From the IMG/VR virus record IMGVR_UViG_3300032285_003957, positions 32,001 through 96,000 of that record: a stretch of 64,000 nucleotides of DNA, one strand, 5' to 3'. The notes below the pieces were generated by a model that saw only the letters and a list, made by a program, of their open reading frames with translations, did not search any database and was not told the origin of the DNA. Shown in pieces: positions 24,723 to 49,170 of this stretch. Positions within the stretch are counted from its first letter, which is position 1; each line of letters begins with the position of its first letter. The translations under genes and the position numbers were made by a program. Origin of the DNA: a virus. Lineage: Duplodnaviria > Caudoviricetes.

Positions 24723-25119
24723 TGGTGGAGATGACGAGACTCGAACTCGTGTCTTTCCTGCTCAACAATAAATGACTACACGTTTATTACAACATTGTTT
24801 CTCAATGTTCCGAAATATCAGGTTTGATATATGTGAGAACCCTACCTGCAAACAACTTGGTCTTAGAATTATTTTAAACGAGCTCTAACCTGTCACCCGT
24901 ATATTGGACTTCTGTTCCTAGGTTAATGTCCTAATCGACCCGTGCATAGGAGGCTAACTTAGTTAGGCTGCTACTTTAGAAGTTGCAAGAATACCTGCAA
25001 TTTCCATGTTGTTGTAAACGTTGCCGTTTGAATTTTTCCACCGTAGATTTAAGTCATAGATGAAGTCTGACTACGTGCCATCTATCCCTGATACCTGAAA
25101 TCAATTCCAAAGCATCCCC
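24723..25119 (-). ncRNA. ssrA: tmRNA; tag GNVYNNMEIAGILATSKVAA* at 25025-24963
   Basis: 5' GGGGATG pairs with 3' CATCTCC-ACCA with G3-U; GTTCGAGTC T-loop; internal tag ending AA-stop; 397 nt. Confidence 0.95.
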
Positions 25120-26999: not shown

Positions 27000-27807
27000 A
27001 AAACACTGAGAATACATGTCTTAACGAAACTCTTTAAAAGGATTATTTGATTCCCTTCGTTTCCACTAACTTTTGATTAGTAAGTTTCAGTCACGGCCAA
27101 TTAGATTAACCAATCCTTTCGCAATATCCTACTCTTTTAATACTCATTACTCATCAAATCTGCCGACCTGATTCAACCTTGCGGGTTTAGAGAACTTTCT
27201 CAAAAATCATATTGGGCTTGAGACCCTTTATGGCTGCGAACCCCTCGCAACTAAGTAGTGACCTATCGGACACTGCGGACGAACACTTTTTCTTGTTATA
27301 ATTTTAGTTGTTAAACCGCTATTAACAAAATTTAGTTTCCGAATTTGGGAAAGTAGTGGTTCGTCACCTAGCCAAGCCACCTTTTGAGCGACTCGATACT
27401 AAACTACTCTCTGTAACATCCCTGCTACCATATTTTTGGACTCCTTCAAAACTAAACCCTTGGTAGAGTTTAATAAAGGATGATAACAGCACCACCTGTT
27501 TTTCACCATACCTTTCGGTTTTAAGATTCCCATTATATTGAATCACGCAATGATATAGTCGGATAACTATACTTCTTACAATAACTCTATGGATTATTCT
27601 TATTGATGTTCCCATCTCAACCGAACAACTCGGATTGCTCGGTCATCAAACCACTTTCGCTACAGTGTTACCCTCACTACTTAAGGTTCAATGATATTCC
27701 ACTTGCCTACTCGAGCTCCATTACTGAAGCCGCAACTTACCCCAACCAAGGGTTTGTCACTTTATCCCACTTTCGTGGTTTATTTTAATCGACCATAGGC
27801 GGCCAAT
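27000..27807 (-). ncRNA. approximately 800-nt structured ncRNA, probably GOLLD-like
   Basis: no credible ORF, GC-enriched, many hairpins with GNRA loops, own promoter and terminator, next to a tRNA array; 3' hairpin GACA-UGUAUUCUCAG-UGUU resembles my recollection of the GOLLD 3' end. Confidence 0.6.
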
Positions 27808-28653: not shown

Positions 28654-28825
28654 CTGTGGTAGCAGGAGTCGAACCATGCAGGTGGAGATTCGATTAGTAA
28701 CAAAGCGCTTGCAAGCCGGTGGTCTACCCCGATATTACTAATCTATTTCTTTGTCCACGCCCGGGAGACAACCGGGTGCGTTTGCCGAGGCCATAACAGA
28801 GACAGCCAATTTTCGCCATACCACA
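28654..28825 (-). ncRNA. 172-nt tRNA-like RNA with expanded D-loop and very large variable region
   Basis: TGTGGTA/TACCACA acceptor, GCG/CGC D-stem, CCCGG/CCGGG stem, GGTTCGACTCC T-arm. Confidence 0.7.
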
Positions 28826-28886
28826 ATATAAGGACCCAGTACCTCTTATGCTTTCACTCACCTGAGTCCAACGTGAGATAAGGTTG

Positions 28887-28976
28887 CAGAGAGTGAGGGG
28901 TTCGAACCCTCGCGCCGATTTAACTCGACCTAACAGTTTAGCAAACTGCCCCCTTCACCAACTTGGGTAACTCTCT
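28887..28976 (-). tRNA. tRNA-Ser(GCT)
   Basis: cloverleaf, loop TT-GCT-AA, long variable arm. Confidence 0.92.
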
Positions 28977-28977
28977 A

Positions 28978-29250
28978 TTAGTAGATGCTGTGTCTATCTT
29001 CTTCGTTTAATAACCCTTTACCAATATCAAACTTTTCAGCTCTTCTTTTTGCTTCTTCAGCTTCTTTAACCCAACGAATCCAAGTTAATGAAATATCAAT
29101 AGGTGCTAACACCCAAGCCATAACAATAACCATTATCGTGTCCAATTCTGCTGAATTTGAGGTTACACTTCCATCGTAGCGTTGTTTGTATTTACTAAAC
29201 AATTGATAAAAACAATACACAACGCAAATCAAATAATACGTAATTAACAT
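28978..29250 (-). CDS. small membrane protein (2 TM)
   Basis: start moved to ATG 29250 outside tRNA-Gln; two hydrophobic segments. Confidence 0.6.
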   Translation of the reverse strand: MLITYYLICVVYCFYQLFSKYKQRYDGSVTSNSAELDTIMVIVMAWVLAPIDISLTWIRWVKEAEEAKRRAEKFDIGKGLLNEEDRHSIY

Positions 29251-29265
29251 AAATAAAAATTTAAG

Positions 29266-29337
29266 TTGTCCCCCAGGGAATCGAACCCCACTTATCCGGA
29301 CCAAAACCGGATGTAATAACCGATATACGAGAGGACA
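29266..29337 (-). tRNA. tRNA-Gln(TTG)
   Basis: cloverleaf, TCCGG-TTTTGGT-CCGGA. Confidence 0.9.
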
Positions 29338-29416
29338 ATAATCTCAGGCATTCTACTTCCCGCAGCACGAAATTGTATCTTACTTAGCCCACCGTTAGCG
29401 GTATGGGAACCTGAGT

Positions 29417-29491
29417 TGGAGCAGATGAGAGGAATCGAACCTCCGTCTCCTACTTGGAAGGAAGGAGTAATGACCATTATACGACATCTGC
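29417..29491 (-). tRNA. tRNA-Gly(TCC), CCA encoded
   Basis: cloverleaf, loop CT-TCC-AA, U73. Confidence 0.92.
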
Positions 29492-29590
29492 ATTCATAGC
29501 AGTTATGTGAGCGCCCAACTCACAATACCACTACGTTTTAATGGATGAAAAACATCTGCTTTTCTTTCGGACTTCCATTGGAGTCCCATG

Positions 29591-29662
29591 AGCTCAGTAA
29601 CAGACTCGAACTGTTGTCTAATGATTACAAATCACTTGTTCTACCGACTGAACTAACCGAGC
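29591..29662 (-). tRNA. tRNA-Thr(TGT)
   Basis: cloverleaf, loop TT-TGT-AA. Confidence 0.9.
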
Positions 29663-29785
29663 AATTATTGGAACTTTAGAAGGTATTCCAACTGATGGTT
29701 TATGACTTTACCACACCACGATTCGCGAGCTGTAAGACCCCAATCATTGATACTCTTCTAACGCTTACACTTCAAGTATCTAGTG

Positions 29786-29858
29786 AGCGGAAGACCAGGC
29801 TCGAACTGGCCACCCCGACCTTGGCAAGGTCGTGCTCTACCGAATGAGCTACTTCCGC
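29786..29858 (-). tRNA. tRNA-Gly(GCC)
   Basis: canonical cloverleaf, CT-GCC-AA-type loop, U73. Confidence 0.95.
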
Positions 29859-29864
29859 TTGTTG

Positions 29865-29936
29865 TAGTCTCTGAGAATTTTGAAATCCCGACCCTCTCCA
29901 TGTAAGGGAGATGCTCTTCCTCTGAGCTAAGAGACT
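29865..29936 (-). tRNA. tRNA-Val(TAC), atypical T-arm
   Basis: loop CT-TAC-AT; T-arm GGGAT-TTCAAAA-TTCTC. Confidence 0.85.
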
Positions 29937-29937
29937 A

Positions 29938-30014
29938 TGGTGGACCAAACAGGGCTCGAACCTGTGACCTTGGCATTATGAGTGCCCTGCTCTAACCATC
30001 TGAGCTATAAGTCC
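29938..30014 (-). tRNA. tRNA(CAT), probably Ile2 (lysidine type), CCA encoded
   Basis: loop CT-CAT-AA, G1-C72; the cognate leader contains ATA, and other CAT tRNAs lie in the second array. Confidence 0.8.
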
Positions 30015-30021
30015 AATAAGG

Positions 30022-30127
30022 TGCCGAAGGAGGGATTTATACCCACACGCAGGTCATTTCGAACTCTGCTCCTTCTAGAATACAGCGCGTCTAACAGGTG
30101 GCCACCCGTCTATTCCGCCACTTCGGC
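30022..30127 (-). ncRNA. 106-nt Leu-type tRNA-like RNA with D-loop hairpin insertion and disrupted anticodon/T loops
   Basis: GCCGAAG/CTTCGGC acceptor, GCG/CGC D-stem, inserted GACGGGT-GGCC-ACCTGTT, T-loop TATAAAT. Confidence 0.65.
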
Positions 30128-30132
30128 ATGTG

Positions 30133-30215
30133 TGAGAGTGGACGGATTCGAACCGCCGAAGTCTAAGACTCCTGATTTACAGTCAGGTGCCAATTACCGC
30201 ATTGACAACACTCCC
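30133..30215 (-). tRNA. tRNA-Tyr(GTA)
   Basis: loop CT-GTA-AA, long variable arm. Confidence 0.9.
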
Positions 30216-30220
30216 ATTTG

Positions 30221-30301
30221 TGACCAAGGAGAGATTCGAACTCTCACGACTTACGTCATTGGTTCCTAAGACCAACGTGTCTACCGTTCCACCACTCGGC
30301 C
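30221..30301 (-). tRNA. tRNA-Leu(TAG)
   Basis: loop CT-TAG-GA, long variable arm, A73. Confidence 0.92.
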
Positions 30302-30308
30302 ATTGTTG

Positions 30309-30380
30309 CGCTGATGGAGAATTACGATATCTCAACCTATTGATTAACAGTCAATTGCTCTGCCGTTGAGCTACATCAGC
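30309..30380 (-). tRNA. tRNA-Asn(GTT), atypical T-arm
   Basis: loop CT-GTT-AA, G73; T-arm GAGAT-ATCGTAA-TTCTC. Confidence 0.85.
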
Positions 30381-30385
30381 TTTTG

Positions 30386-30459
30386 TTGGGAATGCAGGAT
30401 TCGAACCTACGGCCTCTTGGTCCCAAACCAAGCGCGATACCGGACTACGCTAATTCCCA
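30386..30459 (-). tRNA. tRNA-Pro(TGG)
   Basis: loop TT-TGG-GA. Confidence 0.92.
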
Positions 30460-30465
30460 TTTTAG

Positions 30466-30539
30466 TGATTCCGTTTGGATTCGAACCAAAGACCCACATC
30501 TTAGAAGGATGTTGCTCTATCCAACTGAGCTACGGAACC
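30466..30539 (-). tRNA. tRNA-Arg(TCT)
   Basis: loop CT-TCT-AA. Confidence 0.93.
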
Positions 30540-30540
30540 A

Positions 30541-30975
30541 TTATTTAATATTTTTTGCTCGATATGTTTCCGTTTGTGAATGACAATTAGGACATAACAT
30601 TCTTAAATTTTCTAATTTATGATTTGTTCGATTCCCATCGATATGGTCTAATTCCATATTTAATTTTTTACCATTCCATTCTTCAATGTCACATATAAAA
30701 CATTTGTTTTCGATTATTTTTTCTTTTAATAATCTATTTTTTAATTTGAATGTTTGGAAATGTGGATGTTTACCTTCCAATATTTCCTGTAAATCTACTT
30801 TAGGTGGGACAATCTTATTTGTTCCTTTTCCTGATTGATTCGTTACGTAACAACCAAATTTAATTGCATACTTTTTAAAAGTATTAAAATGTAAATCTAA
30901 TTTACTTGCTGCTTCAGCCATTGATTTAGATTCTTGACAGATTTTTATAAAATCGTTTTGATTAAAATGTTTCAT
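30541..30975 (-). CDS. HNH endonuclease inserted in the tRNA array
   Basis: CFIC, ELDHIDG, NLRMLCPNCHSQT; TATTTAT at 30980-30986. Confidence 0.9.
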   Translation of the reverse strand: MKHFNQNDFIKICQESKSMAEAASKLDLHFNTFKKYAIKFGCYVTNQSGKGTNKIVPPKVDLQEILEGKHPHFQTFKLKNRLLKEKIIENKCFICDIEEWNGKKLNMELDHIDGNRTNHKLENLRMLCPNCHSQTETYRAKNIK

Positions 30976-31031
30976 ATTAATAAATATCATACACTTTAGA
31001 AAAAACCATTTTAGTGTCTATCTTTTTCATG

Positions 31032-31116
31032 TACTTCCGACCAGAATCGAACTGGTACGAACTTTCAGTTCATAGCATTTTAAGTGCTACGTGTCTACCA
31101 GTTCCACCACGGAAGC
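31032..31116 (-). tRNA. tRNA-Leu(TAA)
   Basis: loop CT-TAA-AA, long variable arm. Confidence 0.93.
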
Positions 31117-31169
31117 GTTTTTTCCCAATATGTCAAAGAACAATACTAATATAAAAAATAAAATTCACT

Positions 31170-31208
31170 AAAACAAAAAACCCGAACTTTTTTAATTTGT
31201 TCGGGTTT
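31170..31208 (-). terminator. attenuator terminator ahead of tRNA array B
   Basis: AAACCCGAAC/GTTCGGGTTT stem followed by TTTGTTTT. Confidence 0.85.
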
Positions 31209-31230
31209 CAATATTCTAATTTAAATTATT

Positions 31231-31338
31231 TTAAATAAGTGTGTCCGAACTTAAAGCGCATGTAGGTTGCACAAGATAGCCATTACCATTTGTTAACGGT
31301 CTACTCGTAATCCCCAATATGTTATTTAAGTTCTTCAT
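31231..31338 (-). CDS. leader peptide B, 35 aa: MKNLNNILGITSRPLTNGNGYLVQPTCALSSDTLI
   Basis: manually translated; lies between promoter box and terminator; codons match array B tRNAs. Confidence 0.8.
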   Translation of the reverse strand: MKNLNNILGITSRPLTNGNGYLVQPTCALSSDTLI

Positions 31339-31356
31339 CGTTTTTATAAGTATAAG

Positions 31357-31364
31357 CAAATATA
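31357..31364 (-). promoter_or_regulatory. Bacteroidota-type -7 box (TATATTTG) for leader B/tRNA array B
   Basis: TAnnTTTG match 19 nt upstream of the leader ATG. Confidence 0.7.
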
Positions 31365-31405
31365 CAAAAAGTTTCAATAATAAAAAAATAATCATAAAAA
31401 TATTT

Positions 31406-31564
31406 TTACCAACGTTTCATTGGCGGTGGTGAAAATCGTGGTTGATAGTATCTGTGCACATGATACATTCCGTTCCATGGATGACGATGTGTATAAATTG
31501 CACGTTCGTAATAACATCCACTGAATGTCACTGCGATTAACAATAAGAATAATAACTTTTTCAT
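31406..31564 (-). CDS. small lipoprotein (52 aa)
   Basis: manually translated: MKKLLFLLLIAVTFSG-C lipobox; TATTTAT upstream. Confidence 0.65.
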   Translation of the reverse strand: MKKLLFLLLIAVTFSGCYYERAIYTHRHPWNGMYHVHRYYQPRFSPPPMKRW

Positions 31565-31578
31565 ATTAATAAATATTT

Positions 31579-32310
31579 TTAGTTTTTAACTAATTTAGTT
31601 CTTGATATAAAATTATAACTCTCTTCAAATGTTACAGGCTTTTCAATCGCACGTCTTTTTATATTAAGGACATATAACGCATATGAAAGTGCAGCACCTT
31701 CGCCATGACCATATATTGTTCTTCGATATAAATTCTTATCATATAATGATGCATATTCAAACACTGGTTTTATTTTTTCCAACTCATATTGAATTTTATC
31801 GTAATCTAATCCAACAGGGAAATAAAACAATTGTTCAAACATTGTTTCTAATTTTGATGGTTCGGTTCCTTCCAATGTGAGAAACTCAATTATTGGACGA
31901 GCCCATTTATCAACGTTTATGTCAGGTAGATATTTCCATGATTTCCATTCACCGTTAACATTAACGGGCCAAAAAGTCAAATATAAAACCTCATCAAAAC
32001 TTTCAAGTGTTCGATATTTTTCATCGCTTAAAAATACGTTTAGGCTATCACAATCAACATATGTAACATCAGTTTTTAATTCCTTAATTAATTTAAAACT
32101 AAAAAAGAATTTATCAAAATAGCTGAATATTTTTTTTTCGTATTGATATGTTGTGCAACCAACCCCTTCAAATTCTTGAGGTGTGTCTGTTAATATTCTA
32201 ACATCAAAATTGAATTCATTAACTAAACGCTTAACATTATCAATGCATTGACTTGCATATGATAAACCGTCATCGTCCACACCGACACATATTAATGCTA
32301 ATACTTTCAT
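31579..32310 (-). CDS. glycosyltransferase-like hypothetical protein (paralog 2)
   Basis: FSYFDKFFFSFKLIKEL, YVDCD, GHGEG shared with the adjacent paralog. Confidence 0.65.
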   Translation of the reverse strand: MKVLALICVGVDDDGLSYASQCIDNVKRLVNEFNFDVRILTDTPQEFEGVGCTTYQYEKKIFSYFDKFFFSFKLIKELKTDVTYVDCDSLNVFLSDEKYRTLESFDEVLYLTFWPVNVNGEWKSWKYLPDINVDKWARPIIEFLTLEGTEPSKLETMFEQLFYFPVGLDYDKIQYELEKIKPVFEYASLYDKNLYRRTIYGHGEGAALSYALYVLNIKRRAIEKPVTFEESYNFISRTKLVKN

Positions 32311-32312
32311 GT

Positions 32313-33053
32313 TTAAATCAATGTTTTACTTTTGTCTTGGAATATGACGTCATATCTTTCTCTAAATAACATTTGATCCTCAAGTTTTTCTTTACCAATA
32401 TTATTAACATCTAAAGCGTATGAAAGAGCTAAACCTTCACCATGTCCAAATATTAATCGGTTATTTAAATTTATAGAATACAACGACATATATTCAAACA
32501 CAGGTTTTATTTTTTCCAATTCATATTGAACATTATCGTAGTCCAAACCAACGGGAAAATACAATAAACGTTCGTGCATTGTCTCTAACTTAGATATATC
32601 ATATTTTTCCATTTCAAAAAATTCCAATAACGGATGTGACCAAATATCAAACTTAAAATCTTTTAAAAATTGATATGTCACCCATTCTTTGCTATTTTTA
32701 ACGGACCAATATGTTAAATATAACACCTTATTTTGACTTTCTAAATTTCTAAATTTTTCAATTTTAAGTAAATAATCGATACAATCACAATCAATGTAAG
32801 TTACCGATTTATTTAACTCCTTAATTAACTTAAATGAAAAAAAGAACTTATCAAAGTAGCTGAATATTTTCTTATCGTATTTGTAAATTGAACATCCAAG
32901 ACCTTCAAATTCTTTTGGTGTGTCAGTTAATAATCTAACATCGAAACCAAAAACATCAATCAATTGCTTTACATTCTCAACACATTGGGTGTAGTATGGA
33001 ACACCTTTGTAATCATTCCCAACAGATATAATTGCAACTGTTTTCATCTTCAT
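32313..33053 (-). CDS. glycosyltransferase-like hypothetical protein (paralog 1)
   Basis: tandem paralog with YIDCD DxD motif. Confidence 0.65.
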   Translation of the reverse strand: MKMKTVAIISVGNDYKGVPYYTQCVENVKQLIDVFGFDVRLLTDTPKEFEGLGCSIYKYDKKIFSYFDKFFFSFKLIKELNKSVTYIDCDCIDYLLKIEKFRNLESQNKVLYLTYWSVKNSKEWVTYQFLKDFKFDIWSHPLLEFFEMEKYDISKLETMHERLLYFPVGLDYDNVQYELEKIKPVFEYMSLYSINLNNRLIFGHGEGLALSYALDVNNIGKEKLEDQMLFRERYDVIFQDKSKTLI

Positions 33054-33056
33054 ATG

Positions 33057-33128
33057 TACTCCCAACGGGATTCGAACCCGTGACTCATCCGTGAAAGGGA
33101 CGTGACTTAACCGCTTGTCGATGGGAGC
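33057..33128 (-). tRNA. tRNA-Glu(TTC)
   Basis: loop CT-TTC-AC. Confidence 0.92.
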
Positions 33129-33330
33129 GTTTCGGGACGAGTCAGGTTAACTCTTGTGTCCCTACTTAATAGTTGTGTTTAGAGGGAAGTCCAAAACACG
33201 GTATTCACCAAAAGGGACTTTACTTTCGATTATCGCTGAAACTTTTAACTACGCTCAATGTATCTTTTAATTTGTTTCGTTTAACGTCCAAACAAATGTC
33301 CCAGTTGAGCGGGACAAAAAAGACGACCTG

Positions 33331-33462
33331 TGGGTTAGGAGTGGGAATCGAACCCATAACGATGCGTAATCTTCTACTTCAACTCCTTGTACTTCAGAGT
33401 CCGTCACCGCGTCCCGTATGTAGCCTCCATACGGTGCATCTTCCATTTCTGCTACCTACCCA
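33331..33462 (-). ncRNA. 132-nt tRNA-like RNA with long variable region
   Basis: TGGGTAGG/CCTAACCCA ends, GCA/TGC D-stem, CCGTATG/CATACGG stem, GGGTTCGATTCCC T-arm. Confidence 0.65.
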
Positions 33463-33467
33463 AATTT

Positions 33468-33610
33468 GCAATCAAGATAGGATTTGAACCTATAAGCCGT
33501 TTTCGTGTTCTTCCATTCCACTCAACGACATACCTATGTGATCCTGCGGGAAGAAATCGTCCATCTTGCGATGCCTACATAGGTGTGTATCACACTACAC
33601 TTCTTGATTG
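33468..33610 (-). ncRNA. 143-nt tRNA-like RNA with expanded anticodon arm
   Basis: CAATCAAGA/TCTTGATTG ends, ATAGG-TTCAAAT-CCTAT T-arm, ACCTATGT/ACATAGGT stem. Confidence 0.65.
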
Positions 33611-33613
33611 TTG

Positions 33614-33701
33614 CGGAGAGAGTAGGATTCGAACCCACGGACCCCTTTCGAGATCTTCAGTTTTCAAGACTGACGCAATCGGCCAACTCTGCCATCTCTC
33701 C
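33614..33701 (-). tRNA. tRNA-Ser(TGA)
   Basis: loop CT-TGA-AA, long variable arm, G73. Confidence 0.95.
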
Positions 33702-33923
33702 AAATTCCCCACATTGAGATTACTTGTGAGTAGTTATTTCGGTTTTCTATTTCTTAAAAACCTGTGAGGCATCCCTCATTAAAACATCCGACCTAATACT
33801 TGGGGGAGAGTAGGTTCACAATCCTTATTCCCAACGAGTAGTTCTTAAGATGACACTACTAACGTCTAATCCATTGTTAAATGAGTCTTGGATCAAAGAC
33901 TGCTGAGTATCTCTTACTCATTG

Positions 33924-33997
33924 CGGAACGGACGAGACTCGAACTCGCGACCCCTACAGTGACAGTGTAGTATTCTAACCAACTGAACTACCGCTCC
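33924..33997 (-). tRNA. tRNA-Asp(GTC)
   Basis: loop CT-GTC-AC, G73. Confidence 0.95.
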
Positions 33998-34083
33998 GTG
34001 TTTGATTCTAACTCACCTTAAATTGCACCATCCGAGTCACTGCTCTGGTTGACAAAGTCCTCGTTGAGTTAGTCTCAAAATTT

Positions 34084-34203
34084 TTACTTTTTTCTACGCT
34101 GTCTTAAAGCTGAACCTGCAACAGATTTGTAAGCTTTTGTTGTTTTCTTACTTCTCAATGCGCTACTTGCTTTCTTAGCAACTCTTCTTGACGTTCTTGC
34201 CAT
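34084..34203 (-). CDS. 39-aa highly basic peptide MARTSRRVAKKASSALRSKKTTKAYKSVAGSALRQRRKK
   Basis: manually translated, clean ATG-TAA between tRNAs. Confidence 0.6.
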   Translation of the reverse strand: MARTSRRVAKKASSALRSKKTTKAYKSVAGSALRQRRKK

Positions 34204-34218
34204 AGTTAAAAGTTTTAG

Positions 34219-34290
34219 TTGCGAGAGAGGGAATCGAACCCCCGACCTAAAGGTTATGAGCCTTCCGAGCTACCGCTGCTCTATCTCGCG
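34219..34290 (-). tRNA. initiator tRNA-fMet(CAT)
   Basis: C1-A72 mismatch, loop CT-CAT-AA. Confidence 0.9.
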
Positions 34291-34302
34291 ATGTTTGTTT
34301 CA

Positions 34303-34310
34303 CAAAGATA
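34303..34310 (-). promoter_or_regulatory. internal Bacteroidota-type promoter (TTTG-N18-TATCTTTG) before tRNA-fMet
   Basis: both -33 and -7 elements present. Confidence 0.7.
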
Positions 34311-34352
34311 AGAAATATTAATGATATACAAAAATATTTCAAATCTTTTTTG

Positions 34353-34420
34353 TTGCGGGGCCAGGAGTCGAACCTGGAACACTCGGCTTATGAGGCCGGT
34401 GGGAAACCATTCTCCCCGCA
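34353..34420 (-). tRNA. tRNA-Met(CAT) with reduced D-arm (68 nt)
   Basis: good acceptor, anticodon and T arms; D-arm only TGG-TTTC-CCA. Confidence 0.7.
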
Positions 34421-34425
34421 ATGTG

Positions 34426-34497
34426 GGTGTATGGACGGTATCGAACCGTCTTCCCGAGCTCCACAAACTCGTGCTTCACCTTAAAGCTTCAAACACC
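34426..34497 (-). tRNA. tRNA-His(GTG)
   Basis: loop TT-GTG-GA; G-1 opposite C73. Confidence 0.9.
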
Positions 34498-34564
34498 GTG
34501 TGTGGAATCGAACCACTTTCCCATCTCCACGACAGGCGATACGTCCATTATCCTTTACCGGGTG
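34494..34564 (-). pseudogene. degenerate tRNA-like remnant (His-GTG-like)
   Basis: intact GTGG-TTCGATT-CCAC T-arm but poor acceptor and anticodon stems. Confidence 0.35.
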
Positions 34565-34635
34565 AGTCAAGTACTGGAGTCGAACCAATCTAAAAAGTTT
34601 TGCAGACTTTCACCTAACCGCTCGGCCAACCTGAC
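34565..34635 (-). tRNA. tRNA-Cys(GCA)
   Basis: loop CT-GCA-AA, U73. Confidence 0.92.
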
Positions 34636-34694
34636 TTGTTTGTTCACTTTTTTCATCTGTTCACGGTCCGTGAACAATCAAATTTTGTGAACAG

Positions 34695-34766
34695 AGGTCT
34701 CTAAAGGATTTGAACCTTTACTAAAACATTCGTAGTGTTTCGTGCTATCCGTTACACCAAGAGACC
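34695..34766 (-). tRNA. tRNA-Arg(ACG)
   Basis: loop CT-ACG-AA. Confidence 0.9.
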
Positions 34767-34769
34767 TAT

Positions 34770-34958
34770 TTACTTCCATTGAGTCTTCCTTTGTTTTTTC
34801 CACGTTCTAAATTCTCTCCATTTGTGATTTGGTAGGTTACCATGATTAAAATTCCAACCATAATCCCAATCAAGTTCATATTTGTCCGGTGCTGTAACAA
34901 TTTTATACTCTTTGTTATGAGTGGTTTTTTGGCTTACCCTGCCTTTTACTGGTTTCAT
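34770..34958 (-). CDS. small basic protein ending WKKQRKTQWK
   Basis: 62-aa ORF preceded by repeat copy 1. Confidence 0.65.
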   Translation of the reverse strand: MKPVKGRVSQKTTHNKEYKIVTAPDKYELDWDYGWNFNHGNLPNHKWREFRTWKKQRKTQWK

Positions 34959-34961
34959 GCT

Positions 34962-34999
34962 ATTAGGTTTACCTAATGCATATCAAATTCTTTTTTCAT
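34962..34999 (-). repeat. approximately 40-bp direct repeat, copy 1 (hairpin ATTAGG-TAAA-CCTAAT)
   Basis: near-identical to 35178-35217. Confidence 0.8.
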
Positions 35000-35000
35000 T

Positions 35001-35174
35001 TTATTTCCATTTAGTTTTTCTGTGTTGTTTCCAACACTTATCAATTTTTTTTCTTGAACGATTGCAACCTTTATTAGGTCCACAGATAGGACAAGATAAT
35101 TCTCTACTCAACCAAACACGTTTAAATGTTTTACGGTCCGTAATTGTTTTGATGTTTCTTCTTGCTTTTGACAT
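35001..35174 (-). CDS. 57-aa basic Cys-rich protein ending WKQHRKTKWK
   Basis: manually translated; CPIC..C..C; C-terminus paralogous to 34770-34958. Confidence 0.65.
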   Translation of the reverse strand: MSKARRNIKTITDRKTFKRVWLSRELSCPICGPNKGCNRSRKKIDKCWKQHRKTKWK

Positions 35175-35177
35175 ATG

Positions 35178-35217
35178 ATTAGGATTTTACCTAATGCATG
35201 TCGAATTCTTTTTTCAT
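35178..35217 (-). repeat. approximately 40-bp direct repeat, copy 2
   Basis: tgaaaaaagaattcgacatgcattaggtaaaatcctaat. Confidence 0.8.
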
Positions 35218-35219
35218 GG

Positions 35220-35462
35220 TTACTTATATTTTCTTATTGTTTTAAAAACTTTTGTTATATCGGTCAATTCCATTACTTGGTCGTTTCTAATTGGATAAAA
35301 TGCAATTGTAAAACCGTGGTTTCCAAGATAGAAATCTTCCTTCATTATTCTATTGCCATTTACCTTTTCAAGATATATCCAAGGATAGTTACCAACCAAT
35401 TCAACGTTGATTCCTATCTTCTTTAATCTTGGGACTAACCTGTTTATTACGTTGTCTTCCAT
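35220..35462 (-). CDS. hypothetical protein
   Basis: start moved to ATG 35462 outside tRNA-Trp. Confidence 0.65.
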   Translation of the reverse strand: MEDNVINRLVPRLKKIGINVELVGNYPWIYLEKVNGNRIMKEDFYLGNHGFTIAFYPIRNDQVMELTDITKVFKTIRKYK

Positions 35463-35476
35463 AACTTTATTTTTAG

Positions 35477-35547
35477 CACGGGTGGAGAGATTCGAACTCC
35501 CATCGATGGTTTTGGAGACCATAATTCTGCCGTTGAACTACACCCGC
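35477..35547 (-). tRNA. tRNA-Trp(CCA)
   Basis: loop CT-CCA-AA, G73. Confidence 0.93.
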
Positions 35548-35554
35548 GTATTTG

Positions 35555-35629
35555 TGACCCCTTTGGGACTCGAACCCAAAACCCACTGGTTAAAAGCCAG
35601 TTACTCTAATCCGATTGAGCTAAGAGGTC
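35555..35629 (-). tRNA. tRNA-Lys(TTT)
   Basis: loop CT-TTT-AA. Confidence 0.93.
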
Positions 35630-35638
35630 TTACTCTTG

Positions 35639-35764
35639 TCACTTTCCATAGTTGTTGTTTTTAATTTGTTCAAATAACTTATTATGTCTTATCTTTTTAT
35701 CTTCTTGCATCTTCTTTATCAATGCAATAAAATCTTTGCTTGCTTTTACTTTAATCGTTTTCAT
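35639..35764 (-). CDS. 41-aa basic hypothetical peptide
   Basis: manually translated: MKTIKVKASKDFIALIKKMQED... Confidence 0.45.
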   Translation of the reverse strand: MKTIKVKASKDFIALIKKMQEDKKIRHNKLFEQIKNNNYGK

Positions 35765-35778
35765 AAAATACCTTTTAG

Positions 35779-35851
35779 TGGAAATGGTTGGTTTCGACCC
35801 AACTCCTGAAGATTTTCAGTCTTCCGCTTCTACCAAGTTAGCTTCATTTCC
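35779..35851 (-). tRNA. tRNA-Phe(GAA)
   Basis: loop CT-GAA-AA; T-loop GTCGAAA. Confidence 0.9.
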
Positions 35852-35856
35852 TATTG

Positions 35857-35929
35857 TTCTTAGAGATGGGTTCGAACCATCAACCTTCCGCGTATCAGGC
35901 GGATGCTCTCACCATTGAGCTACCTAAGA
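35857..35929 (-). tRNA. tRNA-Ile(GAT)
   Basis: loop CT-GAT-AC. Confidence 0.92.
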
Positions 35930-35934
35930 ATATG

Positions 35935-36007
35935 TGGAGTAAGTGGAACTCGAATCCACAACCTCAAGAATGCAAATCTTGTGCTCATCCGCTAGAGCTT
36001 TTACCCC
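35935..36007 (-). tRNA. tRNA-Ala(TGC)
   Basis: loop TT-TGC-AT, G3-U70. Confidence 0.92.
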
Positions 36008-48137: not shown

Positions 48138-49170
48138 CGTTCTTAAATGGTTTTGAATATTTTGGATAAATAGTTTTCCAAATTATATGTTTATAATCCT
48201 TATTGTCAAACATAGCAAATAAAATAGCAGAGTTAGTGTAACTTAACGCATAATGCGCAAACGTTTTTTTATCTGTTATATTATTTCTTTCTGTAATATT
48301 TTTAAAAATTAATCGATATTCTAAATCAATCGTTTTAAATTGTTGTTCAAAATGTTCTTTGGTTTCTTTAACCCAATTGTAAAATTCATCAGGAACCTTA
48401 TCAAGTATTTCATCCAACGGTTTACCTTCTTTAACATATTCAAAAATATCTCTATTTGAGATATTTGTTAAAATTTTGTGAAGACGTTTATACTCATCAC
48501 CTTTGATTTTCATACGAAAACCATTTTTAAAACGAATCACATATCCTTCTTTATCCTTGGATATTTCTTCTTTTAATAAATCATAGCCTTCACCCCAAGT
48601 CTTATATGTGGTAACAACTTCAAATCCCGCGTCCTGCGTCCAAAACAAACTACTGTCAGGTATTTCTTCACCTGTTTCAGTATGGAAAGCACCAAGAACG
48701 ACTAACTTTTCTTCATTACCATAATCAACAACAATTCTATTTTCAGGATAAATGATTTCAAACAAATACGTATTGTCTTTTCTCCACGCACTTATGTCAT
48801 GCCTATCAAGAATTTCTTTTCCTTTAATTGCTTGCGGTGATGTGAAGGAACCACGAGTAGCTAAAATCCATTGATTTTGATAATTAAAAAGAATTCCTAA
48901 TGAACCATCCATTTTTTCATAAACAACATAATCTTCATTTGGAATATCTTCAGGTTTATATTCTTCGTAATTAAAAAATTTTTTAAATGGTCTTGCAACA
49001 ATCTCACCTTTTGAATTAGTAACTAATCCACGACATTGTATGGTGATTTCGTCCCATAATCTTTCATATTGAACTTTAGGTGAATAATTCCAAATAGTTA
49101 AATCAAGTGTTGGATGTATTTGCTTATGAAGTAAACCATCTTTGTAATATTTTTCTAATGTAGTTAGCAC
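48127..49170 (-). CDS. T4 Rnl1-like RNA ligase
   Basis: RPFKKFFN, EKMDGSLG, ATRGSF, FEII, EGYV, MKIKG motifs. Confidence 0.9.
   Translation of the reverse strand: MLTTLEKYYKDGLLHKQIHPTLDLTIWNYSPKVQYERLWDEITIQCRGLVTNSKGEIVARPFKKFFNYEEYKPEDIPNEDYVVYEKMDGSLGILFNYQNQWILATRGSFTSPQAIKGKEILDRHDISAWRKDNTYLFEIIYPENRIVVDYGNEEKLVVLGAFHTETGEEIPDSSLFWTQDAGFEVVTTYKTWGEGYDLLKEEISKDKEGYVIRFKNGFRMKIKGDEYKRLHKILTNISNRDIFEYVKEGKPLDEILDKVPDEFYNWVKETKEHFEQQFKTIDLEYRLIFKNITERNNITDKKTFAHYALSYTNSAILFAMFDNKDYKHIIWKTIYPKYSKPFKNDEN

Follow-up and report, generated by a model that had tools for sequence, protein, structure and literature searches.

Two adjacent tRNA-framed RNAs with nearly invariant inserts in a phage tRNA array, putative new families of phage tRNA-like stable RNAs

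The transfer RNA (tRNA) clusters of bacteriophages T4 and T5 contain oversized tRNA-like stable RNAs that have been known for about 50 years and whose roles, including those of T4 RNAC and RNAD, are still unknown (PMC3014915; PMC9697503, an omics study of 2022). In T5 (NC_005859) RNA1 of 144 nucleotides (nt) and RNA2 of 125 nt are annotated as "tRNA-like stable RNA with unknown functions"; they lie inside the tRNA region, on the tRNA strand and beside tRNAs, and adjoin HNH endonuclease genes. Their termini pair, D arm and canonical T arm are both present in the fold, and the middle is branched and enlarged. In T4 rnaC (species 1, 139 nt) and rnaD (species 2, 119 nt) are adjacent and follow directly after tRNA-Arg in the tRNA cluster; rnaC possesses a canonical T arm, nearly paired termini, and an enlarged middle, and rnaD shows no T arm in its fold. 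The present analysis concerns a 64,000-nt stretch of DNA (the window), which comprises bases 32001–96000 of the 234-kb, about 70% complete IMG/VR virus record IMGVR_UViG_3300032285_003957 of a large uncultured phage (Duplodnaviria; Caudoviricetes). Its positions 33331–33610 are predicted to encode on the minus strand two RNAs, designated RNA-B and RNA-A, which were described in an earlier note as adjacent enlarged tRNA-like RNAs. Judged by anatomy, these are new families of the phage tRNA-like stable RNAs of the T4 and T5 kind, a class that is functional and anatomical and not one homologous family.

Both RNAs lie in the tRNA cluster, on the same strand and with tRNA-like spacing, fall in the range of 110–150 nt, and combine paired termini and a canonical T arm with an enlarged non-anticodon middle. 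In position, strand, neighbourhood, size, and fold they resemble T5 RNA1 and RNA2, and the D arm of T5 RNA1 is of tRNA-Leu type, as in RNA-A. The T5 inserts differ, however, and no likeness beyond generic tRNA features was seen in a comparison that included no direct alignment or model search against the T5 RNAs; furthermore, the T5 RNAs are annotated as stable RNAs, whereas RNA-A and RNA-B are predicted from sequence. The T4 pair shows an arrangement similar to the one described here, but rnaC is not homologous, scoring 17 bits with the RNA-B covariance model R1 (see below), which is no better than several ordinary T4 tRNAs. The canonical tRNA parts, namely, a 7-base-pair (bp) acceptor stem (with one bulge in RNA-A), a D arm, and a T arm whose loop fits UUCRANY, are present in both RNAs, while a canonical 7-nt anticodon loop with U33 and purine 37 is present in neither, since RNA-B carries a 37-nt branched insert at this place and RNA-A the loop GAGGCUA. 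The tRNA-like domain of transfer-messenger RNA (tmRNA), of which the phage encodes one, likewise joins a tRNA-like acceptor and T arm to pseudoknotted non-tRNA parts and is processed by RNase P; in distinction from it RNA-A and RNA-B lack G3:U70 and any tag reading frame that relatives conserve, keep the D arm intact, and are far smaller.

Both families are uncatalogued: Rfam does not contain them, and searches of GenBank phage records yielded neither. For 33331–33610 no Rfam family, including tRNA (RF00005), tRNA-Sec, YrlA, ribozymes, and riboswitches, was obtained at the gathering threshold or with the cutoff relaxed to E ≤ 10, and ARAGORN called neither RNA-A nor RNA-B. When the region, RNA-B, and a member of the RNA-A family were compared by blastn with 50,697 GenBank phage records, only tRNA-Ser or generic T-arm matches were obtained, and the exact core motifs (23 bases of RNA-B and 21 bases of the RNA-A arm) were absent from 185,579 prokaryote genomes.

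RNA-B consists of the following parts.

33469–33609, minus strand: RNA-B, tRNA-framed RNA, 141 nt from A1 to G73, with C74 at 33468 and position -1 (C) at 33610; the minimum-free-energy fold is a cloverleaf with extra arms
33603–33609, minus strand: acceptor 5' strand AAUCAAG, pairing with CUUGAUU at 33470–33476 (7 pairs)
33585–33600, minus strand: D arm with a 5-bp stem and a 6-nt loop, 100% of alignment cells paired
33532–33584, minus strand: "anticodon" arm, an 8-bp stem (33577–33584 with 33532–33539) around the 37-nt insert 33540–33576
33496–33529, minus strand: variable arm of 34 nt, in which an outer stem of 6 bp and an inner stem of 3 bp carry the 11-nt loop GAAUGGAAGAA
33477–33493, minus strand: T arm AUAGG-UUCAAAU-CCUAU, with pair types GU/AU/GC and AU/GC among relatives
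33549–33555, minus strand: candidate pseudoknot strand UUCUUCC in the insert, whose partner GGAAGAA lies at 33508–33514 in the variable-arm loop (7 Watson-Crick pairs)

The length of RNA-B amounts to about 141–143 nt, the span 33610–33468 including positions -1 and 74. The paired termini, the canonical T arm, and the 8-bp stem around about 37 nt with CATC-GCAA-GATG had all been read correctly in the earlier note, from whose description the 34-nt variable arm was absent; the hairpin within the insert is a GNRA hairpin, CAUC-GCAA-GAUG, at 33562–33573. Compared with shuffled sequences the single-sequence folds show a modest gain (z -2.6 for RNA-B and z -1.2 for RNA-A), and therefore the case for both RNAs rests on comparison with relatives.

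The RNA-B relatives were gathered by exact-motif scans of viral and metagenome contigs (cited below by L numbers), and an alignment, A1, and the covariance model R1 were built from 23 distinct sequences. Covariance modelling had been proposed as a check in the earlier note, and R1 finds exactly one strong match per locus, of 140–180 bits, in 45 loci (the window and 44 related contigs); the window RNA-B scores 173 bits and is the sole match in the phage's own genome. Structural conservation in relatives, without which the earlier note would have given up its proposal, is seen as covariation in an RNA-B family of 24 distinct sequences and likewise in an RNA-A family of 8. In A1 99.0% of cells form standard pairs, in contrast to 33–45% when the partners are slid, and eight pairs change on both sides: two of the D stem (UA/AU and AU/GC), four of the six that form the variable arm's outer stem, one of the T stem, and -1:73. 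The same cloverleaf-like consensus fold was obtained independently by RNAalifold. In the 8-bp stem 100% of cells are paired, and L004 adds one compensated base pair to it; the D loop, GUGUGA in the window, is GUGGUA with G18G19 in most relatives. The tetraloop variants are restricted to GCAA, GAAA, and GUAA, plus one ACAA, and such variation, nearly confined to the N position, is the pattern expected of a genuine GNRA loop. Almost invariant in the family are the acceptor stem (one G-U change and one mismatch across 23 sequences), the long stem, the insert, and the loop of the variable arm, where no change is seen at all.

The insert and the variable-arm loop of RNA-B could be joined by a 7-bp pseudoknot, as their complementary strands suggest. 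The energy of this candidate duplex is -8.4 kcal/mol and was equalled by 46 of 2000 shuffles. Both strands are invariant in all 24 RNA-B sequences, so that covariation is uninformative on the pairing; in the most divergent homolog (L078, L082), which was found via the T arm and acceptor only, both strands are kept and a competing small hairpin is lost. Altogether the 24 RNA-B variants provide better comparative material than T4 and T5 do, because in them a frame that covaries freely can be told apart from a core that is invariant and probably pseudoknotted.

RNA-A consists of the following parts.

33331–33461, minus strand: RNA-A, tRNA-Leu-derived RNA, 131 nt from G1 to A73, with C74 at 33330
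33455–33461, minus strand: acceptor 5' strand GGGUAGG, pairing with CCUAACCC at 33332–33339 with one bulged A; A73 at 33331
33436–33452, minus strand: D arm GCAG-AAAUGGAAG-AUGC with A14, A15, G18G19, and A20a, of tRNA-Leu type by alignment with the tRNA-Leu genes of the window
33414–33434, minus strand: "anticodon" hairpin, a 7-bp stem CCGUAUG/CAUACGG with the loop GAGGCUA at 33421–33427
33359–33410, minus strand: 52-nt variable-arm module, whose 8-bp stem has one bulged A and which also contains the hairpin GACUCU-GAAGUACAA-GGAGUU and a bulge of 14 nt, GAAGUAGAAGAUUA
33341–33357, minus strand: T arm AUGGG-UUCGAUU-CCCAC, the first pair being an A-C mismatch here, with one extra U before the acceptor strand

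This anatomy, read on the minus strand from 33462 or 33461, agrees with that given previously, namely, paired termini (here with one bulged 3' nucleotide), a canonical T arm, a 7-bp stem with GAGGCTA, and a variable region of about 55 nt, which extends here from that stem to the T arm. In the loop GAGGCUA positions 33 and 37 are A and U, so both U33 and purine 37 are missing. Close homologs of RNA-A, 88–97% identical, are found in L011/L012/L014/L032, L015, L018, and L066, and a search with the variable-arm motif added L073, L074/L075, L076 (5826–5957), and L077, in which a clean frame resembling tRNA-Leu, with the acceptor AGUCAGG/CCUGACU, the D arm GGUGGCGGAAUUGGUAGACGC, and A as discriminator, bears the arm of about 52 nt. 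The D arm of these clean frames is common to the two tRNA-Leu genes of the window itself. The family comparisons comprise 8 distinct sequences with a total length of 128–132 nt. Covariation with both sides changing is seen at acceptor pairs 1, 3, 4, and 7, T-stem pairs 2 and 3, and D-stem pairs 2 and 3, while the closing pair of the variable-arm hairpin covaries through four pair types; the first T-stem pair is A-U in 5 of 8 relatives. Only one member of the family, L077, is accepted by the Rfam tRNA model (34.5 bits).

The 52-nt variable-arm module is nearly invariant in the 8 sequences across different frames, and the "anticodon" hairpin is the least conserved part of RNA-A, with a stem of 4–7 bp and a loop of 5, 7, 9, or 10 nt that never contains U33. 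Among the loops GAGGCUA, AAAGCUA, AGCAA, and GAGAAGCUAA there is none of 7 nt with NAG or NAA, the anticodons for leucine, and a loop length that ranges from 5 to 10 nt makes decoding impossible. The non-decoding tips proposed in the earlier note are thereby borne out for both RNAs, RNA-B having no anticodon loop. The variable hairpin, set against the conserved frame and arm, indicates that selection keeps the frame and the arm and not the decoding loop, and the occurrence of the same cargo arm on several different tRNA-Leu frames shows the arm, and not the anticodon, to be the part kept by selection. With the class II tRNA-Leu genes of the window the family shares the D arm, U8, A14, A15, G18G19, A73, and a long variable arm; it differs in the size of this arm (about 52 versus about 14 nt) and in a loop of variable length with no U33 and no Leu anticodon. 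RNA-A is optional, since in L003 and L006 the sequence that trails RNA-A here directly follows RNA-B. In L073, L076, and L077, which are viral contigs of about 30 kb, the arm-bearing Leu-framed RNA is solitary, with no other tRNA in the 10–13 kb examined, and is preceded by an A/T-rich TTTG-containing stretch, which could be its own promoter.

The placement of the two RNAs resembles that of true tRNAs. RNA-B and RNA-A are positioned on the minus strand between tRNA-Ser(UGA) and tRNA-Glu (33056–33128), with the serine gene as follows.

33613–33701, minus strand: tRNA-Ser(UGA), immediately upstream of RNA-B here and in most relatives

The distance from tRNA-Ser to RNA-B is 2–4 nt and that from RNA-B to RNA-A is 7 nt, which accords with the tRNA-like spacing claimed earlier, the true tRNAs of the array being 1–7 nt apart. 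In at least 24 of the 25 true tRNAs C74 is encoded after the discriminator, mostly followed by A, and a full CCA is found in only two; the trailers of RNA-B (G73-CAA) and RNA-A (A73-CAG) share this N73-C74, and A73-C74 is present in all 8 members of the RNA-A family. It is known that RNase P processes T4 dimeric pre-tRNAs, which have spacers below 5 nt and no CCA, as well as other tRNA-like RNAs (PMC11143913). From the tRNA-like spacing and the shared N73-C74 trailer we infer that RNase P and RNase Z would release both RNAs. No gene for a CCA-adding enzyme was found in the 234-kb, 70%-complete record, so that a host enzyme would be needed.

According to these data it is considered probable that RNA-A and RNA-B are genuine non-decoding small non-coding phage RNAs, whose tRNA frame ensures processing and stability and whose insert binds a partner. 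Both would be transcribed together with the tRNA array, RNase P would cut their 5' sides, host tRNA 3'-end enzymes would trim the 3' sides, the host CCA-adding enzyme would finish the end, and the L-shaped fold would make both RNAs stable. The frame would in this way provide excision from the array, 3'-end completion, and stability, and the invariant inserted module would be the working part, binding a conserved partner, which is likelier to be protein than RNA. When the window was searched for antisense targets, no further complement of the cargo loops turned up. A host-encoded partner is probable, because RNA-B is present as well in a second group of related contigs (L002, L004, and L008), where the conserved proteins encoded by the genes flanking the RNA have no homolog in the window. 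Pfam and PHROGs searches with the genes adjoining the RNAs in the window, L002, L004, and L008 returned only HNH endonucleases, a 2OG-Fe(II) oxygenase, a ferredoxin-like protein, and unknowns. In L002, L005, L007, and L026 an open reading frame (ORF) begins 8 nt 3' of RNA-B, and in L002 (4250–4840, plus strand) it encodes the 2OG-Fe(II) oxygenase.

Several points weigh against this interpretation. The window RNA-A is the least regular member of its family, with the acceptor bulge, which is present in L066 too, the A-C mismatch of the T stem, and the extra U. No protein gene adjoins either RNA in every contig group examined, the contigs being few. The RNA-B pseudoknot shows no covariation, both strands being invariant, and part of this invariance was forced by search patterns that required both strands. 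That the acceptor stem of RNA-B hardly varies hints at something reading the acceptor end itself, which a pure scaffold model leaves unexplained. Finally, the processing and the stability of both RNAs are themselves deduced from the nucleotide sequence.

The main rival to the model of a tRNA frame with a partner-binding insert is that the RNAs are off-ribosome aminoacyl carriers: host leucyl-tRNA synthetase (LeuRS) would charge RNA-A, another synthetase would perhaps charge RNA-B, and the amino acid would be delivered to a non-ribosomal enzyme recruited by the arm or withheld. This is regarded as unlikely, and its stricter version, in which RNA-A and possibly RNA-B are dedicated carriers never entering the ribosome, the 52-nt arm recruits an enzyme or sensor of Leu-RNA-A, and the acceptor and pseudoknotted body of RNA-B do likewise for a second partner, appears quite improbable. 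The idea draws on the fact that E. coli LeuRS needs A73 and the tertiary elements of the D and T loops, with no need of either anticodon or variable arm, variants without both arms being still charged (PMC9976931). The E. coli leucine identity set is complete in the sequence of the window RNA-A (A73, U8:A14, A15:U48, G18G19, and A20a), and RNA-A and all 7 relatives keep these E. coli-type elements together with a canonical T loop, A73, U8, A14, A15, U48, and G18G19 being kept in 8 of 8 members and the discriminator being followed by C74 equally often. In RNA-B the acceptor stem hardly varies, in contrast to other, covarying stems, as would be expected of a stem read by an enzyme. The identity elements of RNA-A may, however, be mere tRNA-Leu inheritance kept for folding, the identity rules are those of E. 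coli and not of the host, and the bulged acceptor stem of the window RNA-A may hinder charging. RNA-B for its part has no U8 and no A14, carries mostly G73, and shows no recognisable identity set, and a Pfam scan of ten ORFs at 23.7–40.4 kb of the window, the part with the array, revealed no tRNA-dependent transferase, for which no dedicated search was made. If the carrier reading were true, these stable RNAs of phages, for which an explanation has been wanting since the 1970s, would assist as cofactors in tRNA-dependent chemistry or in controlling how the host senses amino acids.

It is also rather improbable that the RNAs are decoys, whose tRNA frame would lure host tRNA binders (anticodon nucleases of defence systems, modification enzymes, or synthetases) and whose altered middle would make them dead-end ligands or inhibitors. 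Phage tRNAs can counter tRNA-cleaving defences, the tRNA elbow is kept in both frames, and a full tRNA set together with tmRNA and an RNA ligase of T4 Rnl1 type suggests pressure on the tRNA pool. A decoy for an anticodon nuclease, however, should copy the anticodon stem-loop of the target, and RNA-B has none, while in the RNA-A family the loop is the least conserved part and the inserts are invariant; thus this explanation fits poorly, the anticodon-like parts being absent or variable. Moreover, neither RNA is linked to a gene for defence or anti-defence.

Ro60/Rsr, named in the earlier note as a possible protein partner, finds no support, since the 234-kb, 70%-complete record contains no TROVE gene, and the view that RNA-A and RNA-B are Y-RNA-like partners of this protein is very improbable. 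YrlA-type Y RNAs (RF02553) are also non-coding, mimic the tRNA elbow with an acceptor-like stem, contain a tRNA-like domain, and occur in some phages (PMC4201824; PMC7824862). As a search control, a TROVE protein was found in Bacteroides, a possible relative of the host. Even at E ≤ 10 there is no match of the Rfam YrlA model to either RNA. The termini of YrlA lie in the Ro-binding stem, whereas those of RNA-A and RNA-B form the acceptor stem.

Equally small is the probability that the RNAs have no function of their own and represent decaying tRNA genes, intron-bearing tRNAs, or a small ORF: tRNA finders miss both of them, RNA-A is missing from some close relatives (L003, L006), and 24 codons can be read within RNA-B, but pseudogenes are rejected as conservation is highest in the inserts and compensatory changes are seen in the stems, an intron is rejected as the 37-nt insert sits directly on the stem, leaves no anticodon loop on removal, is far too short for a group I intron, and matches no Rfam intron family, and the ORF is rejected as one-nucleotide indels and the compensated extra base pair break its frame in relatives.

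Three structural readings were also considered and set aside. The -1:73 pairing, which would give RNA-B the 8-bp acceptor stem of a tRNA-Sec-like 8/5 fold, is possible in 22 of 23 RNA-B sequences and also in 16 of 25 ordinary tRNAs of the array, which makes it not distinctive; such a fold was dropped for this reason. It would further call for a UCA anticodon, and RNA-B lacks any anticodon loop. Inspection by eye for a sarcin-ricin-loop mimic or an 11-nt tetraloop receptor showed that neither fits.

RNA-A and RNA-B belong to a wider set of tRNA-framed RNAs with non-decoding middles, as the earlier note supposed, since besides the annotated T4 and T5 RNAs three more were found in related contigs. 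RNA-C is a 172-nt tRNA-like RNA at 28654–28825 of the window (minus strand), at about 4420–4595 of L004 (minus strand), and at L008:2888–3049 (plus strand), and in L004, in L008, and in several contigs from metagenomes its homologs are the next element after RNA-B; in related phages tRNA-Ser, RNA-B, and RNA-C thus travel as one module. In L002, L004, and L008 (10–36 kb) RNA-B is accompanied only by tRNA-Ser and at times RNA-C, with no large tRNA array in the stretch examined. RNA-D is a Leu-framed RNA of 94–98 nt (L011:3219–3314 and L066:729–822, both on the minus strand), and a further tRNA-Leu-framed RNA of 124 nt lies at L079:5004–5127 (minus strand). The identities given by ARAGORN to the two RNA-D copies, Val-GAC and Ala-CGC, are inconsistent. 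For annotation this means that tRNA finders miss such RNAs or assign arbitrary anticodons to their relatives.

The tRNA array extends over 28886–36007 (minus strand) and includes 25 tRNAs called by ARAGORN, or 26 with one extra call made by Rfam only, which cover all 20 amino acids. Other features of the neighbourhood are listed below.

24723–25119, minus strand: tmRNA, found by Rfam search
27003–27411, minus strand: GOLLD RNA, found by Rfam search
33297–33316, minus strand: terminator-like hairpin 15 nt 3' of RNA-A, UGUCCCGCUCAACUGGGACA followed by UUUGUUUGG

The sequence of the terminator-like hairpin stands directly after RNA-B in L003 and L006 and after RNA-A in L011 and L015. With this hairpin begins the 200-nt spacer 33129–33330 (minus strand) between RNA-A and tRNA-Glu, of which at least the first 30–190 nt, as far as the extracts reached, are nearly unchanged in the same four contigs. 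The folds of this spacer (z -1.25) and of the spacer 33702–33922 are no better than those of shuffles. Between tRNA-Cys and tRNA-His a 67-nt gap at 34497–34563 (minus strand) contains a T-arm-like AGUGG-UUCGAUU-CCACA, and its ends pair in part only; this element, called by no tool, may represent the remnant of a tRNA or else a tRNA-like RNA of short length.

The gene of the T4 Rnl1-type RNA ligase is located at 48490–49038 (minus strand) and matches PF09511 with 75.6 bits, which suggests that tRNA repair by the phage is possible; it was the only one found among the repair genes sought, the 234-kb, 70%-complete record containing no RtcB. As in phage T5, HNH homing-endonuclease genes are situated in or beside the tRNA and tRNA-like arrays, namely, at 30541–30990 of the window (minus strand), L002:3378–4025, and L008:2002–2502.

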